From the NCBI GenBank assembly GCA_965205425.1, contig CBDBGZ010000008.1, positions 1-64,000 of the forward strand: a DNA stretch of 64,000 nt. The letters run 5' to 3'. The notes under the pieces were generated by a model. The model worked only from the letters and a program-made list of their open reading frames with translations, had not been told where the DNA came from and searched no databases. Both the position numbers and the translations under genes were made by a program. The DNA comes from Nitrosopumilus sp. (GTDB taxonomy: Archaea > Thermoproteota > Nitrososphaeria > Nitrososphaerales > Nitrosopumilaceae). Below are positions 37,756 through 51,721 of this stretch, in pieces. Every line of letters begins with the position of its first letter. The first letter of the stretch is position 1.

Positions 37756-37929
37756 ATGCTATCTGATTTCCTTGTCTTCTTATTCACATATCTATGTGAA
37801 ATCTTTAAAAACATTTGCACTCTTTTGCAACACATGAGAATGGCTACCGCTAGAGATGATCCCATTCATTTTCAAAAGATGAAACCGGACACATATCTAT
37901 TTGAGGATCTCCCTCAGTACCATCTTCAT
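37756..37929 (-). mobile_element. IS110 remnant spanning the A/B element junction
   Basis: Reverse complement of 48056-48229; cut by the GGTTCTGG end motif at 37930. Confidence 0.9.
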
Positions 37930-37953
37930 GGTTCTGGTGCATTTTGGTGATCT
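37930..37953 (+). repeat. GGTTCTGGTGCATTTTGGTGATCT end motif
   Basis: Matches one arm of the 47-bp element. Confidence 0.85.
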
Positions 37954-38157
37954 GTACAACAAATCATGAAATGTGAGTCTTTTTACAATTATCTTTATAT
38001 TGATATTTCTTTGTGATATGATTAGAACATGAATAAGCAATATCTGATAGTGATATCTGCAATAATATCTATAATGCAGTTAGACAAAAAATAAACAAAC
38101 GTTGATAATGTTTCTGTGATTCAATAATCCTAAAACCTAATTGCTAAATATAATAGT

Positions 38158-38648
38158 AACCATATGTGAATAAACAACGAAATTTAGATGGTACTGCTGA
38201 TTCTATAGTTTCTAAAAGATACACCTCCAAGAAAAAACCAAAGAAAATCATTAGGACTAGAAAGACAAAACCCATGACCTATGTCGGAATTGATTTGCAC
38301 AAAGAATTCTTACAGGTCGAAACAATGGATGATAAAGGACATACATTATTCAATGAAAAAATTACAAACACCAGAGGGGATATCAAAAAAGCATTTTCTG
38401 CAATCCCAAAAAACTCAAAATGTGTAATGGAATCATCATCTGTCTGGTATGGCGTGTTTAGGTTTCTGCGAGACGAACTAGGATTTGATGTAATACTATC
38501 AAACCCATATCACACAAAAGCAATTGCAGCATCAAAGAAAAAAACTGACAAGATTGATGCTCACATCTTGGCAGATTTGCTAAGAGGAGGATACATCTCA
38601 TCTTGTCATGTACCAGAAAAAGATACCGTGCAAACAAGACAACTGGTG
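38158..38648 (+). pseudogene. IS110-family 5' remnant
   Basis: Left end AACCATATGTG; YVGIDLHK, VMES and KTDKIDA (DEDD domain); truncated. Confidence 0.9.
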
Positions 38649-38761
38649 GTCTGGACCCCTCTAGAGTAGGACCAGTAGCATACATACACTTTTCAGATAA
38701 CTTGGGAGGTTTACTTTCATGGTAAAGAGCAAGTGATATGTTTACAATATTGGGCATTATT

Positions 38762-41515: not shown

Positions 41516-42611
41516 TACCTCGGAGCATAATTCTTTGCAATTTTTCAAAACAAATAGCAATACTTTTTGATCAGTAGTTAGAAATAATTTCATGGACATT
41601 ACAAATGACGAGTTACTCCAGGCCTACAAAAAAGAAAAGTACGGTAAGAAAAAGGAAAGACTGCATGCAATGTGTAAGATTAAAATCAACGAATCCACAA
41701 TTGCTGAAACTGCCAACCAAATGTTTTGTACATACAACTCTGTAAGGAACTGGCTTGATTCATTTGAAAAATACGGACTAGAGGGCCTGGAGGACCCCCC
41801 TCGTTCTGGCCGTCCGCCATTAATTTCACACAAAAAATTACAAAAAATAGAGCGTACATTTAAGAAAATTTCAAACGGCATGACTCCAAAAAAACTGGTA
41901 CAATTCATATTTTACAGAACACGCATTACATATCATATCACTCATGTGCGTCCTTTGATGCACAAATGGAATCTAAAACCAAAGGTTCCCCAAAAGGTAC
42001 ATGTGCGAGCAGCATCCAAGGATGTGTGCCGCAAGTGGAAAAACCGCATCATTTCACGCATAGAAAAGGCAAAAAAGAAAGGTTTTACAGTATTCATCCA
42101 AGACGAGTCTGTATTTGTAGACGATGTACGTCTTGGTAAAAAATACTGGACAGATGTACACCAACGAATGATTGTACGTTGGAGAGGATCACACCAAAGA
42201 TTTTTGGTTTATGGGATGGTGACTGATGATAATCAAAGTTTTTTTAGATCGTATGAAAAATTTAATTCAATTGCATTTATGGATTATTTGGAGGCAGCTC
42301 GTAGAAAATTCGGGAAAATATTTGTTATCGTCGATAGGGCACCGCAACACAAAGCTAATGATGTAAAAGAATATCTGCGTAAAAACAAGGATGTCAAACT
42401 GGCATATCTTCCAAGAGGTTCTCCACATTTGAGTATGATTGAAGAGATTTGGAGACAGTGCAAACATGTTAATGTTGAATCAGAATTTTATGAATCTATT
42501 CATGAGATGAGACATACAGTTATGGAATATTTTAGAACCCATAAATTTAATTTGAATATGTATCAGTATTTTGCAAGAACAATAAATTGAAAAGACTTAT
42601 GATCTTGGGTA
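41516..42611 (+). mobile_element. IS630-family IS, intact
   Basis: Transposase 41592..42590 (QDES, VDRA.QH, LPRGSP..IEEIW); imperfect 25-bp TIRs; TA TSD. Confidence 0.95.
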
Positions 42612-42685
42612 TAAGCATTGTATGCAATTAACCTGTACAACATCTCATTGTCCTGAGTTGTAACATTTCTTGATGTGACATCTCC

Positions 42686-42732
42686 GGACGTGGTGTATTT
42701 TGGTGATCTGATCATCTAAATACACCAGAACC
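42686..42732 (-). repeat. 47-bp palindromic mini-element, copy 3
   Basis: Reverse complement GGTTCTGGTGTATTTAGATGATCAGATCACCAAAATACACCACGTCC. Confidence 0.85.
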
Positions 42733-42822
42733 ATTGAGAACATGATCAAATTGAATCAATTACACAACTCATCTAATAATTGAGTTTATCTGATATAAAA
42801 AATTCTCAAAGTCCGTTGGTTC

Positions 42823-43248
42823 GTGACGGCAGCTTGTGTGTTCTTGACTGAATCAATAGGCAAAGGTGATACCCAATCCGTCCTAAAAAAATTCCAAACA
42901 GCAGCTTGTGTGTTCTTGACTGAATCAATAAGCAAAGGCCAGGCTGCAAAGTCATTAGGGATTTCATCTCAGACCTTGAAAAAATACCTTGGATTTGCAG
43001 CAGTTCCAGAGAAACTAAAACAATTTGTTCCAAAAGAGTTGTCTCGTGATGATTGTACTAGATTATATCAAATTGTATCAAATGTACCAAAGGCCGTATC
43101 CATTGCAGAGAAAATTATTCCGTTAGATCAGAAACTACGAAAGGAATACCTCAAGGCTTTAAGTAGATCTCCAAAGTCATCACATCTAAAATTATTAAAA
43201 AGAGCCAGAGCAGGATTACTCCAACAAAGAGTCACAATTGAATTAACT
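42823..43248 (+). pseudogene. Internal fragment of a ParB/Spo0J-like HTH protein gene
   Basis: AAKSLGISSQTLKKYLGFAAVPEKLK is HTH-like; truncated by the IS at 43249. Confidence 0.6.
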
Positions 43249-45447
43249 GAGACTTGGGCATAATGATTTACAAAAATAATTTCCAATATTTCTCTAGCAG
43301 CACAACATTCTCTTTACAGTTCTTGGATTCTCTGCACCAATTGCACAGTTGTAGTAAACTGTCAACTGATACACAAGAACACAAACCAACACAAATGATT
43401 TGACATTGTGCAATCCCTTTACAGGCAATACTCTGATGTCAAAAATATCTTTGAGATACTCAAATAGAGGTTCAATTGAGACTTTTCTATCTGCATACAG
43501 CTCTTGCCCAATTACAGAATTGTAAAACTCTACGAGTTTTATTCTCTCTGGCGGCGTATGCGGGTATTGTTTTATTGGAGTAATTAGTCTCAGATTTTTC
43601 TTGTTGCTAAATTGATGCAGTGAACCGTTGTCATATGCAGGATCACATAAGATATTCTCGACAAATCCTGCAAGAGATTCAGTTAGTATTTCATACATCT
43701 TGCCGTCATGAACATTTGCAGTTGAGACATCAGCAGACAATGGAACTATCAGTTTTCCAGTACTGCAACTCATATGCAGTTTGTACCCAAATATCCAACC
43801 CTTTGATTTTGAAAAACCCCATTTTGCATCTGTGTCAATTCCTGAGATTGGAATTCTATTCTTTTTCATATCTGACTTGTGCCATACTGGACCTACAGCT
43901 TTTAGCATGGAACTATCCACTGATGCAGATATGTCATCGACTAGTTTCTCTGATACAAACAGACTTTCCATATTACTGATTATATCACCAATTGGCAGAA
44001 CTTGGAATCTCCTGTCAATGGTTCTTCTGTTTGGGATTTGAGTTAGTCTGCAAACCTTGAGCAATTTATCATTGATACCTTTAGTCGAAAGGAAATAATG
44101 TAATGTATTGTTGCTTGGAATTCTCATCCAAGATTTTATGATGGACAGCTGTACCATTAGAATTGTAGAGTATACGTACGGTCTACCAAGTTTTCAGTAT
44201 CTCTTCATACAAAGACAACATTCCCACCAAATGTAACATACCAATAAGAAGTGATTCCGATAGAATCTTGTATCTTTTCCGGAAATTATTTCACCCCTTA
44301 ACTAGGAGAGCATCATTCCCATACTATCGTATGCGTGGGTATCGTGGCATACCTATGGTAAAGTTAGATGAGAATAAGATCAGGTGGATTATACAATCTA
44401 AAAATGAAAAAGTCAAGAATTTAGATATTTCAGTAATCCTCAAGATAACGCCTAGAAGAGTACAACAAGTCTACTCTCAGTACAAAAAAACCAAAAAGAT
44501 TCCCACACTCAAAAGACCAGGGCGTCCAAAAAAGCCAGTCACTGTACACGAGATAGAGCTAGTCAAACAAGTTCAAGAAAAATTTCATACAAACGCACTA
44601 TACCTTGAGAAAATCATATCAAAATTGTACAATACCAAGATAAACCACAATCGCATCCACAAGATTATGCTAGATGAAGGATTATCAGTTGAGCAACCAC
44701 GGAAAAAGATGAGAAGAAAGTGGATCAGGTATGAACGTGAATATTCAAATTCACTGTGGCATACTGACTGGCACACAATACATGATTCACGCTGGGCAGG
44801 AAAACAACTAATTGCATTTGAAGATGATGCCTCACGATTTATCACGGGTTTCGGAGTGTATGATGAGGCAACATCTGTGAATTCTTCTGAAGTACTATCT
44901 GATGCAATAAAGAATCACGGTAGACCAGCATCTGTACTATCTGATAATGGAAAACAGTTCACATCAAATGTCAATACTCTTGATCATAACAAGCCAGTAG
45001 ACTTTGAGCAGCAACTAATGAGACATCACGTAAAGCACTCTCGTACAAGAGTGAGACATCCACAAACAAATGGTAAGCTAGAAAAGTTCTGGGATATCTT
45101 TGAGTGTAAAATAGAATACTTTGAGTCAGTGGAGCAGTTTATGCATTGGTACAATCACATTAGAGTTCATGGCGCACTAGACTTGGATAACATGGAGACA
45201 CCATCTGATGCGTATCACTCCAAGATGATAACAAACGAAATACTCATAGACCCAAGCATTCTATGGAGGAATTACTCATGAAAGTGACACGAAATAATTT
45301 CTGGAAAGAACATCCGATAGAATCTTGTTAGGGATTTTCATTTGTTTTGACATTACAATGAACAAAACATGATAAGATCCTTAGCTTTTTCTATTTGAAT
45401 AATTTGAGAATTGACTCAAAAATTAGAATTAGTTATGCCCATGTCTC
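43249..45447 (-). mobile_element. IS5/IS982-like (DDE_Tnp_1) IS, disrupted by a nested IS481
   Basis: 15-bp TIRs GAGAC(T/A)TGGGCATAA; ORF 43294..44157 has VDSS, FGYKLH, DPAYD and IEPLF; 5' part of the gene lies beyond the nested IS. Confidence 0.85.
44271..45312 (+). mobile_element. IS481-family IS (type a), second copy, 15-bp TSD
   Basis: Near-identical to 30086-31127; TCCGATAGAATCTTG on both sides. Confidence 0.95.
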
Positions 45448-45587: not shown

Positions 45588-46505
45588 TTATGTATGAGAA
45601 CCACCTACAATTATTCTAGACCCCAATGTACTATCAAGTGATGCACGATTACTTGCATCAATTGATTCGGAATTTTGAATAACTTGGCAACTATTTCTCA
45701 TACCATCCACTGATGTATTTTCTGTATTTGAATCATAATGGATTTGAGTGCCGAAGATATTGGTATTAATTCTTTCAACAGATGTCATTTTAAAATATAC
45801 TTGATTGTGTTGTACACTTCTATCAAGGCATATTTTGGATTCAAATGTTATTGTACCACTAGGTGCTACAAACCATACTTCTACGTGAGAAGTTCCAGGA
45901 CCATAAGTAAGAGTCCTAATAGGGCAAGTTCCAGAGAAACCCCAGCCTGATGGATAACATGGAAAGAGTATTCCTGCTTGATTTGATAAACTGACATCAT
46001 TTGTATGAATGTCAGTAACTGTTGCAGCATACCCCTGTGTTTCAAATTCAGCTAATGCTTGATCGTATTTGTCAAAGTAGTATGATGGATTATCATGTAC
46101 TTTGTCTTCAGGACCAACACCAAATTCTTCTAGCTGGGAAAATATCTCATCATGTTGAATCTTTAATTCCTCAATTCTCTGCTCGTCATTTGTAGCGTGT
46201 ATCTGCAATGAAATTCTACTTGCCTCTACAAGTAATTCGTTTCTTGCAAGTTCATATGCACTTTGTGCTGTGATGAACTCATTTGCAGATTGTATGTAGG
46301 TTTCTTGTTGTTCTTCAGTCATATTTTGATAATCTTCATCAAGTTTCAAAAGATCAACATATACACCAACATCTCCTACAGGACCTACTCCATTTGCTTC
46401 TAGTTCTTCTCCGCCTGGTACCTCTTGTGCTGTAACATTACTCATTCCAGCTGGAATAAGTAATACAATTGCCAAGAGTGGTATTGTGTATTTGATTTTA
46501 TTCAT
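45588..46505 (-). CDS. Secreted protein with type-A leader
   Basis: MNKIKYTIPLLAIVLLIPAGM..QEVPGGEELEANGVGPVG, then a coiled coil and a Cys-containing beta-rich C-terminus. Confidence 0.8.
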   Translation of the reverse strand: MNKIKYTIPLLAIVLLIPAGMSNVTAQEVPGGEELEANGVGPVGDVGVYVDLLKLDEDYQNMTEEQQETYIQSANEFITAQSAYELARNELLVEASRISLQIHATNDEQRIEELKIQHDEIFSQLEEFGVGPEDKVHDNPSYYFDKYDQALAEFETQGYAATVTDIHTNDVSLSNQAGILFPCYPSGWGFSGTCPIRTLTYGPGTSHVEVWFVAPSGTITFESKICLDRSVQHNQVYFKMTSVERINTNIFGTQIHYDSNTENTSVDGMRNSCQVIQNSESIDASNRASLDSTLGSRIIVGGSHT

Positions 46506-46858
46506 GTTCTTAGGATCAAGGATTGTATACTAGATTAAAAGAGTGGCGATTAGAAGGAACTGGTAAGTTAACGAGAATTGAATAATTCTTTGAGGATTTG
46601 GAAATGTATTATAAACCATGAACTATCCAAAGTTAAATGTAAAGAATCTTATTTTTGCTTGGCACATATTTGACGTATGTATTCTTGAAGATCTGGGGAT
46701 ATAGAAATCTTCTTTCCATCTAGTATGACGTCGTTTTCTCGCATACGCGCTATCCTTTTTTGGAGATATGTTTTGGAGATTTTTGTGTGTGCACTAATCT
46801 GAGATGTAGTGTGAATTGCATCATGTACGGTACAGCACAAAGCAGACACATCGTAACC

Positions 46859-48195
46859 ATAACCATATGTGCCAAAATCAGCTAGGAAATTAGATGGTAC
46901 TTGCATTCGTATCAAGAAAGTAAGAAATGCAAACAAACACACTACCATTCCTGAAAAAAAATATTTGATGTTTGTAGGATTGGATGTTCACAAGAACTCT
47001 GTACAGGTGGCAGCAGTAGATGAGATTGGCAAATTGTTATTTAACAAAAAGATTTCCAGTGATTTTTCTGCTATTAGCAAAATTACATCCAAAATTCCAA
47101 AGAACGCAAAATATGTTTTAGAGTCATCATCTGTCTGGTATGGCCTTTATAGACACATGACAGACAAATTACATCTTGATGTTATACTATCTAATCCATA
47201 CAACACAAAGATAATAGCATCATCACTCAAAAAGACTGATAAAATTGATGCGTACCATCTTGCAAATTTGCTACGAGGAGGATACATTGCAGAATCATTT
47301 GTGCCAGATCACACAATTGTGCAATACAGACAGCTTGTAAGACATCGACACAAGATTGTGCGCATCATTGTAAAGATGAAGAATTCCATACATGGTATTA
47401 CACTACAGGAGGGAATCCATATCAAAGCAACACCATTTTCCTCAGAACACATACGTGCACTTGGAAAATTGGAGAGTTATAGAATAGATTCGTACCTACA
47501 AAGCATAAAATTTCACAAAAAGGAGGTTGCAAAAATAGATTCCATGATACGTCGCATGGTAAATGATAATCCTGACGTGTGTATTTTGACATCAATATCT
47601 GGAGTTGGACCATACACTGCATTGAGCATATTCTCAGAAATTGCAGAGATTAGTAGATTTTCAAATTCTCGCAAGTTATGTGCATATGCAGGGATTGTTC
47701 CATCGGTGAGAAATTCTGCAGATACAATACATCACGGAAGAATTACAAAGAGAGGAAGCACCATGCTAAGATGGTTGCTAGTGGAGGCAATTCATGCACA
47801 TGTTAGATGCGCACCAGATAGCGACATTACAAAATTTTACAATCGCATTAAGAAAAAGAGAGGGACCTCAAAGGCAGCAGTTGCTGCTGCATCAAAGTTA
47901 TTGCGTGTCATATATTGGATGCTAAAGGAGAGGAGAGAATTTATTCAATGTCATCAATAATTTGTAAAACATTACAGTTAGGAGTTTGGCCGCGTTTTCA
48001 CATTGAGGATGCATAATACCTCGAAACTATAACCGCGGTTTCACCTAATAAATGGATGAAGATGGTACTGAGGGAGATCCTCGAATAGATATGTGTCCGG
48101 TTTCATCTTTTGAAAATGAATGGGATCATCTCTAGCGGTAGCCATTCTCATGTGTTGCAAAAGAGTGCAAATGTTTTTAAAGATTTCACATAGAT
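46859..48195 (+). mobile_element. IS110-family element A (IS1111-like layout), intact
   Basis: Recombinase 46869..47960 (GLDVHK, LES, KTDKIDA, SVRNS); short left end, ~235-bp right end, subterminal ATGTG/CACAT. Confidence 0.9.
47976..48170 (+). ncRNA. Putative bridge RNA of IS110 element A
   Basis: Two stem/internal-loop/hairpin units (CCGCG..GAGG..CCTC..CGCGG and GATGAA..GAGG..CCTC..TTCATC); scaffold shared with 49310-49490; boundaries approximate. Confidence 0.65.
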
Positions 48196-49518
48196 ATGTG
48201 AATAAGAAGACAAGGAAATCAGATAGCATAAAAAATGAATCTAGTTCCAAGGTTCGTAAATACTCGGCTCCAAAAAAGATTACAAACAAACAGATTAGGA
48301 AGAAACCAAAGAAAGGCATGTTTGTGGGCATTGACCTGCACAAGAAGTTTCTTCAAGTAGCAATAATGGATGATGCAGGCAAAGTATTACAAAATGACAA
48401 AGTGGATAACACTCATGAATACATAAAAAAGCATTTTGCAAAAATACCAATTTCTGCAAATATTGTAATGGAATCCTCATCAGTCTGGTATGACACGTAT
48501 CGATTTCTCACAGATACTTTGGGATACAAAAACGTCACACTCTCAAACCCATATTTGACAAAAGCAATTGCTGCATCAAAAAAGAAAACAGACAAGATTG
48601 ATGCCAAGATATTGGCAGATCTTTTGCGAGGAGGATACATTGCCACATGTTATGTTCCAGACAAAAAGATTGTACAACAAAGACAGCTCGTAAGATATAG
48701 GAAAAAACTAATCCAATGGAGAACATCTGTCAAGAATTCAGTTCATGGAATATTGTTACAAGAAGGAATCAGGATTCCAGGAGTTACATTTACTGAAACA
48801 TACAACAGAAGACTCAAGGCACTAGGAGATTACAGAATAGACGGATTCTTGCAACAAATCAGCCACACCTTAATTTACAGATTGCAGAGATTAATTCCAA
48901 AGTGTATGCTGCTGTAAAAGTTAATCCTGATGCAATTTTAATAAACTCGATTCCAGGAATTGGGCATTATTCTTCGCTTGTCATTGCATCAGAGATTGCA
49001 GATATTGAAAGATTCAATGATTCTCACAAACTGTGTGCATATGCAGGAGTTGTACCATCAGTTAGAAACTCTGCAGATACAATACACCATGGCAGAATAA
49101 CAAAACGAGGAAGCATGACATTGAGATGGGTTCTAACCGAGTGTATACACACTCATGCAATACATGCCAAAGATAGTGACATTACAAAATTTTACAATCG
49201 CATTAAAAAGAAAAGAGGATCATCCAAAGCTGCAGTAGCTGGTGCATCAAAGATCCTGAGGGTGATTTATTGGATGTTAAAGGAGAGGAGAGAATTTGTA
49301 CAAAATTATAGTTAGGACTGCAAGTCGCGTTGTAATTATTGAGGGACAAGGCCTCGTTTGATAACTGCGAACAATCCTAACTAGGATGAAGATAGCATTG
49401 AGAGAATAGTCTCGTATGGATACATGTCTGCCATCTTTTGATTGAAACCATTCTCTAGCGAAAGCTATGCCCTGATGTATGGAAAGAGAGGAAATGTATA
49501 AAAACAATTCACATGGAT
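48196..49518 (+). mobile_element. IS110-family element B; recombinase frameshifted near 48865
   Basis: ORFs 48198(GTG)..48917 and 48902..49315; right end finishes TTCACATGGAT and abuts IS481 sequence. Confidence 0.9.
49310..49490 (+). ncRNA. Putative bridge RNA of IS110 element B
   Basis: AGTTAGGA..TCCTAACT outer stem; TCGCG..GAGG..CCTC..TGCGA; GAGA..TCTC second hairpin; boundaries approximate. Confidence 0.65.
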
Positions 49519-50281
49519 AATCACAGAGCAGATGGTACAGACTGTCCAGTCTACATTTGAAAAGTTCAGGTGTTCTGCAGTATTCTTGGAGAAAATAATT
49601 GATACTACTGGAACACACATACCTCACAATACCATACACAAAATTATGAGAGATGAAGGGTTGGCAGAAGCTCAGCCAAAGAAGAGGAGAAGACGAAAGT
49701 GGGTTAGATACGAGAGGACATATTCAAACTCCATGTGGCATACTGACTGGAAGAAGCTAGATGATGGCAGATGGTTCTTATGCTACCAGGATGACGCATC
49801 AAGGTTTATCGTCTCTCATGGAGTGTTTGCAGAAGCTACTACAGATAACGCACTTGTGGTATTACATGAGGCAATTGCAAAGCACGGTAGGCCTGCATCA
49901 ATTCTAACTGATCATGGCTCCCAGTTTTATGCAAACCAATCAGAATACAAGAGAAAAGGAGCATCACAGTTTGAGCAAGAACTGGTTAGACTTGGAATAA
50001 AACATATCATGGCAAGAGTGAATCATCCCCAGACAAATGGAAAGTTAGAAAGATTTCACGGCGAGATTCAGAGAAAGCAGAAATGGTTTGGCACCATTGA
50101 TGAGCTGGTCCACTGGTACAATCACATAAAGCCACACATGTCACTTGACTGGGATAATCTTGAGACTCCTGCAAAGGCATATGCAAGAAAGATGCCCGAG
50201 AAAGGAACAAGAGTTATTGATGAGCAGACAGGAGAAGAATACGATGTCAAATAAGGGACGAACTGATTTTGGGATACAACA
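49519..50281 (+). mobile_element. IS481-family (type b), 5'-truncated by IS110
   Basis: Near-identical to ~24386-25218 but lacking the 70-bp insertion. Confidence 0.9.
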
Positions 50282-50402: not shown

Positions 50403-51721
50403 CAGTAGATGGGAAAGTAACTCAAATTACACATTCTAGGAAATAATTATTTTTGTTATTTCTAAAGTAATGAATAATTATCTTTACAAAGAAATATTTG
50501 AGAATTTCAATTGATATTATTGGTTTGTGATTTTGTACATTAGTTTCTTCTGAGATAATCAAATTAGCAATTATCCATGCATTGTACAAAATCAATGAAT
50601 AGTAAAAATACAACAATCTTATGGATTGGTTTGAACTGGTGGTTTTTGGTCTGAACCTTCCCACACATGCATATCCTGTTTCAATTCCCCAACGTTTCTT
50701 GTAATCAGTTGGAATGTTTTGTATGTTATATGATATTTCTTTTGGTGAAACGTTTGTTGCAAACACAACATACTGATCAATAATATTTGATTTTTTTCTT
50801 GCATTTTTGTTTGGTAGAATAACTAGATTAAATGATTCTACATGTCCTGATGATGATTTTATTGTGTATGGCGAGATTGACTTTCTATCTCCATTAACGT
50901 ATTGTAAAATGGCATCTTTGATTCGAGAATTCTTTTTTGCAGGCATTAGAAATTTCAGATTCTTTTGTTTTATTTCTGAAATTGTTCCAGCTGTGAAAAA
51001 CTCCCTATCCACTAGCAATAGTTTAATCTTGATTCCATTATTGATGCCATCAGAGAGTAATTTACGCACAAAACCGGCATTTGATATGTTGTCATACAAA
51101 GGATAACAACCTAGTTGAGCCCTGATTCTTTTTTCAACGCACTGCATGGTGCAGTAACTCTCAAAATGAGTAGTACTGTTTTTTGATTTTGATTTTATTA
51201 AAGAATGGTTTGGCAATTTGTCATATCTTGGGATTAGATGTTTGTCAATTGCCACAGTAACTGGTTGCTCCAATACTCCCAATTCTTGTAATTTTGATAC
51301 TGTACTATCCAGTGAACGATGTAATTGAATTTGCATTGTTTTTTGTGATATTTTTGATATGATTTTTCTCAACCATGAACCAGTTGGAGAATGATTCTGG
51401 GATTCCATTGCCAGTCTCTTTAATCCAGATTCAGAATATGAATTTCCCAAACACAATGACATGATAGAATTATGTGCGTCTGCATTGTGGAACCGTGAGT
51501 TATTTTTACTAGAGCATGGAAACAACAAGATATTGTACATTATTTTAGTGATAATCTCAAATGCTTTAGATAGTATCACGCCTTGGTGTGTCATGGTATC
51601 AAATGAAGTACAATGCATATTTGATGGAGTGACATACTTTCATCAAGCTTTTTCTATCTGAATAGATTGATTGAATAATTGATAGTTTTTGATCTAAATT
51701 GAGTTACTTTCCCATCTACTG
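50403..51721 (-). mobile_element. ISH3-family IS, intact
   Basis: Perfect 21-bp TIR CAGTAGATGGGAAAGTAACTC; transposase 50422..51618 (AIDKH, VDREF, YKKRWGIETGY); no TSD. Confidence 0.95.

Follow-up and report, generated by a model that had tools for sequence, protein, structure and literature searches.

The guide RNAs of IS110-family elements, called bridge or seek RNAs, have two loops and are a kind known since 2024 (PMC11187229, PMC11208160). IS1111 elements have extensions of 7 bp on the left and 3 bp on the right outside their subterminal repeats, which are usually 11-13 bp long (PMC11187229), or 7-17 in Durrant et al. (PMC11208160), and in their seekRNA the complement of the top strand stands ahead of the match to the bottom strand (PMC11187229). 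ISEc11, ISKpn4, ISPa11 and ISPst6 (Siddiquee et al. 2024, PMC11187229) show this order and these extensions, a non-coding region downstream of the gene, and natural reprogramming. IS621 (Durrant et al. 2024, PMC11208160) has two internal loops, one for the target and one for the donor, a recombinase with DEDD and Tnp domains, and guides on both strands round a short core with two handshake-like bases beyond it (PMC11208160, PMC13626964). Some members of the IS110 family hunt mobile elements: the targets are Tn21 repeats for IS4321 and IS5075, and IS3-family genes for ISEc21. In the modular circles of ISPpu9, several end-like boxes per locus permit recombination of modules (PMC12288879). Archaeal IS110 genes are already known (10.1101/2024.06.21.599552; PMC13343696).

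We analyzed a stretch of 64,000 nucleotides from Nitrosopumilus sp., referred to here as the window. It has two IS110-family genes in head-to-tail order, A (46869-47960), which is intact, and B, which is split by a frameshift. The main parts are as follows.

46860..46871, plus strand: left end of A, with the TA core and ACCAT (7-bp extension) and the 5-bp subterminal repeat ATGTG
46869..47960, plus strand: IS110-family recombinase A, intact, 363 aa from a GTG within the subterminal repeat or 330 aa from the ATG at 46968
48185..48196, plus strand: right end of A, with the repeat TTCACAT, the 3-bp extension AGA and the core TA (48195-48196)
48197..49315, plus strand: rest of B, with the left subterminal repeat and then the recombinase B gene (GTG at 48198), frameshifted near 48864
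49497..49519, plus strand: right end of B, with a TATA-like box (49497-49504), the repeat TTCACAT, the extension GGA and the core TA (49518-49519)
49520..50254, plus strand: 3' part of an IS481-like element, the target of B; NF033577 below cut-off (partial gene), 5' part absent from the left flank

By layout, A and B are IS1111-type IS110-family elements, and their predicted working is IS621-like. As in ISEc11, ISKpn4, ISPa11 and ISPst6, non-coding DNA lies downstream of the gene (about 210-235 bp on the right of each element and <10 bp on the left), and the 7-bp and 3-bp extensions, the guide order and the natural reprogramming are the same. In contrast to those four, the repeats of A and B are only 5-7 bp long, against the usual 11-13, the host is archaeal, the right end contains the whole of the TATA-like box, both ends appear to be read by a simple second loop, and A seems to target a member of its own family (PMC11187229). 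The two loops, the DEDD and Tnp domains, the guides on both strands and the two handshake-like bases are shared with IS621. Unlike in IS621, the predicted RNA is placed at the right end, the guide order is reversed, the core is T(A) and not CT, and the register is loose (PMC11208160); A and B also hold an internal copy of a donor guide, of which we found none in the descriptions of IS621 consulted (PMC11208160, PMC13626964).

Recombinase A contains PF01548 and PF02371 and gave 242.8 bits with NF033542 (cut-off 140). Its whole open reading frame is kept, with the D-E-D-D motifs (D6, E52, D91, D94) and the Tnp serine (S250) all in place in the 330-aa numbering, so that element A is intact, as the initial annotation had it. 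The PDB structures 8wt6 and 9t56, of the same type (DEDD and Tnp domains), were matched with E about 1e-7. Recombinase B shares 55-70% of its amino acids with A, and the frameshift near 48864 recurs in contigs from two public runs. The closest named relatives come from Nitrosopumilus genomes, with identity up to 99%; plasmid matches to the transposase, mostly in haloarchaea and labelled just 'IS110 family', have about 35% identity. In G000, the genome that served as test set, about 20 related copies occur, of three transposase types, A, B and C.

The region around the two elements is dense in insertion sequences. A broken A/C-type right end fused to a B left-end remnant lies at 37756-37953 (minus strand); at 38157-38650 (plus strand) is a C-type element that is truncated and whose left end has not been invaded. 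More transposase genes (DDE_3, two DDE_Tnp_1 and rve domains) were seen at 41592-45281 and 50422-51618, and 45588-46505 (minus strand) is a 305-aa open reading frame with a signal-peptide-like start and without a Pfam match.

The right ends of A and B are homologous (column identity 76%), and we assigned to them the following putative RNA parts.

47976..48050, plus strand: target-binding loop of A, with a 5' guide (47995-48003) antisense to the right flank and a 3' guide (48024-48033) in sense with the left flank, TA and AC
48054..48100, plus strand: donor-binding loop of A, with a 5' guide (48062-48068) and a 3' guide (48085-48095; right end, TA and TGTG)
49310..49435, plus strand: two-loop RNA of B, with target guides (49331-49339, 49357-49365) and donor guides (49392-49398, 49416-49426)

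The conserved two-loop fold was seen in the alignment of homologous right ends and not in single sequences. That is, the right ends of A and B folded singly gave z values of -1.37 and -1.08, no better than shuffles, while the alignment of 24 diverse right ends gave two stem-loop-stem units with 26 pairs, in which 98% of cells were paired. Compensatory changes on both sides occurred in 10 of the 26 pairs; this was equalled in 0 of 500 shuffles, a control that is inflated by kinship among the 24 sequences, and slid controls were 31-45% paired. The G-U pairs of the consensus fold occur on the plus strand only. A model made from the right-end alignment matches 20 of 151 genomes of the family, and the search against Rfam returned two chance matches only.

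Outside the consensus fold, a conserved hairpin-like word, TAGC-N4-GC, stands between the donor loop and the TATA-like box at 48129-48145 and 49452-49468. In two other places (L035:3170-3270 and G000:C5:227050-228200), different elements are inserted in the donor loop of the RNA, and at L032:3064-3446 part of the RNA region is present a second time, behind the right end.

In both loops, the 5' strand is antisense to the DNA on the right of the core and the 3' strand is in sense with the DNA on its left. The hexamers given in the initial annotation were found at their places (ATAGAT at 48190 and 48085 in A; ATGGAT at 49513 and 49416 in B), and TGTAATTAT at 49331-49339 agrees in 8 of its 9 bases with the reverse complement of 49517-49525. 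Co-variation of the terminal hexamer with loop 2 extends to the relatives, since among 79 parsed right ends the donor 3' guide, which is the loop-2 hexamer, is the same as the terminal hexamer in 76. The donor 5' guide follows the C or T of the left extension in 53/53 simple elements and in 10/13 composites, and further coupled changes of guide and end were noted by eye in L025 and L064.

The target guides behaved similarly. The 5' guide matched the right flank at 6.5 of 8 positions against 4.4 when shuffled (55 pairs, 27 guides, p about 1e-4), with a score that permitted six registers; from lineage to lineage the register moves by 1-2 nt, and 14 of the 55 pairs score 5 or less. The 3' guide matched the left flank at 2.6 of 4 positions against 1.4 when shuffled (41 pairs, p about 1e-4). 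Loop parsing left 15 of 74 loci unparsed. Thus all four guide segments track flanks and ends across the relatives. Among 20,000 random TA sites of this genome, 1.7% equalled the target-guide score of B (7/8, best register) and 0.6% that of A. The 3' guide of B in its target loop matches the left flank in the window at 1 of 4 positions. The 3' strands run two bases beyond the core; in most target loops these are AC, the start of the left end. The handshake-like TG of A/C donor loops fits the targets in 15 of 18 rows, and the B-like CA in 13 of 37.

Chance agreement in A+T-rich DNA, with the right end being merely a conserved DNA end, would agree with the poor folding of single sequences and with the lack of a matching Rfam family. 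This explanation is very improbable in view of the compensatory stems, the G-U pairs confined to the plus strand and the four guide segments that track flanks over 27 guides. We consider it very likely, from the sequences, that the right ends of A and B encode a two-loop guide RNA; the compensatory stems and the co-variation of guides and flanks bear out the right-end-encoded bridge RNA with target and donor loops that was proposed for this archaeal host. The right non-coding end would supply the two-loop guide RNA of an IS1111-type IS110-family element. In each loop the 5' strand would pair with the top strand on the right of the T(A) core, and the 3' strand with the bottom strand on the left, and pairing of the 3' strand would run across the core into two handshake-like bases. 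We infer the RNA, its pairing and the circle form from bacterial relatives; our own observations concern the fit of the sequences.

The core itself differs from the AT proposed earlier. The ends of G000 were collected by motif (18 left and 19 right). Right ends read CACAT-(A/G)GA-TA in 19/19, and the pattern of left ends is TA-AC(C/T)AT-ATGTG. Left junctions read x-TA-AC[C/T]AT, in which x varies and is set by the guide. The empty IS481-like targets hold a single TA, that is, 16 intact copies read GGGAA-TA-ATCACAG, and the target of C is G-TA-TGTGTTT in six empty sites. What the empty sites have in common is TA. In the parsed right ends the T of the core is present in 78/79 and the next base is A in 60/78, so that only T is invariant. 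We discarded AT on the left junctions and the empty sites, because the base preceding TA changes with the guide. The core is T(A). The targets are specific, the shared core is short, and there is no target duplication, as empty sites carry one TA.

The subterminal repeats are 7 bp in B and C and 5 bp in A, and joined ends would space them by 10 bp (7 left and 3 right). At the left ends of distant Archaeoglobi relatives (L147, L152) we noted by eye that the subterminal repeats are longer and that the start codon coincides with one more copy of the repeat, which is perhaps analogous to the internal guide copy described below. Like the IS110-family hunters of mobile elements named above, B and C target other mobile elements, IS481-, IS5-, IS66- and IS1595-like. 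Targets of B/C guides at G000:C4:208445, C4:16895, C4:55773 and C9:797479 are multi-copy IS66-, IS5-, IS1595- and IS66-like elements, respectively.

A and B had been described as two tandem elements. We found instead that A sits within the left end of a B/C-type element, as a stub of the host element lies upstream of A.

46854..46859, plus strand: stub of the left extension of the host element (TAACCA), left behind by the insertion of A

Contigs from public runs span both the left junction of the window and the A-B junction. A side-by-side tandem formed by donor-donor joining was considered, for the A-B junction resembles a circle junction, and it is excluded by the host stub upstream. The same arrangement settles a misfit in the initial annotation, in which the second donor guide of B did not match the left end. 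This misfit is only apparent because A sits inside the left end of B; the left extension has been displaced 1.34 kb upstream, and in uninterrupted elements the guide tracks its C or T without exception, as given above. The stub in the window is of C type, and the left flank is without the 5' half of the IS481-like target; therefore, the flanks in the window come from different insertions. L003 shows the nested arrangement with both target halves.

The nesting recurs in other copies. The guides of A predict the 15-mer AACTA-TA-TGTGAAAA, which the left end of B matches at 14/15 and that of C at 13/15. Of the parsed right ends that have an A-type target guide, 13/13 run on into ATGTGAATA (3 in G000 and 10 in two other genomes), and so does a fourth, partial copy in G000. 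The stub TAAC(C/T)A precedes 10/12 A left ends in G000 and 14/14 in other loci; the full stub is missing at the other 2/12 in G000. The host bodies of nested A are of three types, and uninterrupted hosts also exist. A variant A guide in L010 matches its target at 9/9. The nested junction was found in only 3/401 genomes of the family, and these copies are kin. Two 17-base pattern scans of 198 loci gave chance matches and no new A-type copy.

These findings make it likely, as judged from the sequences, that A targets the left ends of the sister elements B and C. In this mechanism, the target loop of A, being programmed for B/C left ends, would lead A to insert there, and the insertion would split the 7-bp extension of the host from its subterminal repeat and start codon. 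This differs from IS4321, IS5075 and ISEc21, in the parts of their descriptions consulted, in that A would target a sister element of the IS110 family at its donor end and create recombining pairs.

The guide RNA may, however, be real and A have entered sister ends only a few times, the nested form having spread as a unit or by recombination with A as a passenger. We think this unlikely. TA sites of G000 within two mismatches of the 15-mer number 28, that is, six uninvaded C ends and 22 unrelated, empty sites, of which two differ by one mismatch only. The many empty sites that fit the guides of A equally well favor the passenger, as do the several G000 copies, the one in the window included, with flanks from different insertions, one crossover and one guide common to three chimeras at three sites, and a frameshift near codon 138 common to the A copies of OZ242186.1. 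In contrast, the guides of A agree with the sister end in 13-14 of 15 positions, and a variant guide at all of its positions; three host types and double stubs need repeated entry, and the same host is found with and without A at like targets (L040 and L002). We retain sister-end targeting as the probable reading. Since 22 unrelated fitting sites are empty, the guides alone do not explain the 13/13, and something more must contribute, be it the handshake bases, a contact of the protein with ATGTG or the spreading of composites. Self-avoidance through the weak left repeat of A is not claimed here, as the relative L034 has a similar end.

The A copies split near codon 138 in OZ242186.1 are L001-L009 and L022, near 2413, and L001 has one extra G; the split is either real or a shared assembly error.

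Seven chimeras were mapped in which the A gene is joined to the B RNA (six G000 copies and L008). Their crossovers lie near 47755, 47835 and 47945 in the coordinates of A in the window, in at least three zones, and the tracts are patchy. The chimeras hold three target guides, each with different flanks. A in the window is itself a hybrid, being identical to element C from the donor loop (about 48062) onward; the other, native A end was seen in L001 and in run contigs. Recombination between the similar halves of nested pairs would swap transposase, target loop and donor loop, and collapse by deletion within nested pairs is plausibly the simplest route to chimeras of A transposase and B RNA. The extra module of ISPpu9 is a small-RNA passenger, whereas here it is a second full element (PMC12288879).

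A candidate promoter is also placed in the right end.

48174..48181, plus strand: TATA-like box directed out of the right end of A, 30 nt before the GTG if the ends join; putative promoter

By eye, each of 34 distinct right ends contains an A/T-rich box at a constant position, and of 25 distinct left ends 23 have the start GTG in the reading frame of the gene. A box 30 nt ahead of an in-frame GTG would fit a leaderless transcript from an archaeal promoter. On joining of the ends, the box would drive a leaderless transcript of transposase plus RNA. Nesting brings the box 6 nt nearer to the GTG of B, a shorter spacing that should cripple B. No joint of right end to left end was listed in the contigs of four runs, which as contigs do not show its absence.

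A second occurrence of the seven-base 5' donor guide, of the same sense, lies in the transposase gene around positions +23 to +35.

46894..46900, plus strand: same-sense copy of the 5' donor guide of A (ATGGTAC) in the gene start; candidate operator
48223..48229, plus strand: same-sense copy of the 5' donor guide of B (ATAGCAT) in the gene start, by sequence match

We compared the copy with the guide across relatives, taking guides from the model alignment and locating left ends via the protein; 70 of the 110 model matches were parsed and 40 unparsed, and one type of A/B chimera was excluded. The copy is exact in 28/42 distinct elements and agrees at 6 or 7 of the 7 bases in 38/42. Per guide, it is exact in 56% against 4% when shuffled (17 guides). 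In its first five bases the copy agrees with the guide in 36/42 and with the terminus in 19/42. In the last two bases, for which the terminus offers no explanation, copy and guide are the same in 33/42. On a tree of relatives only, guide and copy change jointly several times, and the sisters L108 and L109 differ by one base in both. The internal site fits one guide only, not both.

The likely partner of the RNA at the internal site is the template strand, because RNA and mRNA have the same sense. The RNA-loaded recombinase would bind this strand at the copy and damp its own transcription. It is possible, then, that the copy is an RNA-guided operator, which is the reading that we prefer; the co-variation is observed, and the function is a guess. 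The copy may, with a similarly tentative standing, be a part of donor recognition, as a loading site or second site of the donor loop, or may pair with the terminal ACCAT in a read-through RNA and hide the start codon. The main rival to an operator is the loading site for end recognition. Both the loading site and the hairpin fit with first five bases that are the inverted repeat of the left extension in 19/42 and with a position 30-45 bp from the end, and half-site binding across loops in the IS621 excision complex is consistent with the loading site (PMC13626964, in the part consulted). The better agreement with the guide than with the terminus, including two bases absent from the terminus, and a distance that varies in steps of three argue against the hairpin, and not against the loading site. 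We gave up the idea of an RNA switch involving a third strand, as the complement of the donor guide occurs elsewhere upstream in 1/19 elements only. Whichever its role, the co-varying copy is a precise site to mutate, and it bears on IS1111-type end recognition and on the control of expression.

We found no report of IS110-on-IS110 targeting or of an internal guide copy in the portions of the literature searched. Neither feature was reported in the available parts of the literature on IS110 autoregulation, on the structure of the IS1111 donor loop and on Nitrosopumilus IS110 elements (including PMC12288879 and PMC13604230), nor did nesting or an internal copy appear in those of 10.64898/2026.10.21.760802 and 10.1101/2025.10.25.684509.

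Taken comprehensively, the account of guide RNA, sister-end targeting and swapping, with the operator as its tentative last step, is, in our judgment, likely. What is new here against the literature consulted is the nesting in sister ends and the internal copy of the 5' donor guide, and these matter more than the bridge RNA, which by itself is a further example of the mechanism of 2024. Nesting offers a visible natural route for the swapping of bridge-RNA modules. Recombinase A is found with at least three sets of donor loop and right end, which bears on the interchangeability of these parts as tools. We speculate, with some doubt, that A is programmed by RNA to parasitize its own family, that nested pairs are the route by which transposases and the two kinds of loop are reshuffled, and that the donor guide, throughout the clade, may also serve as an RNA-guided autorepressor at the internal copy.
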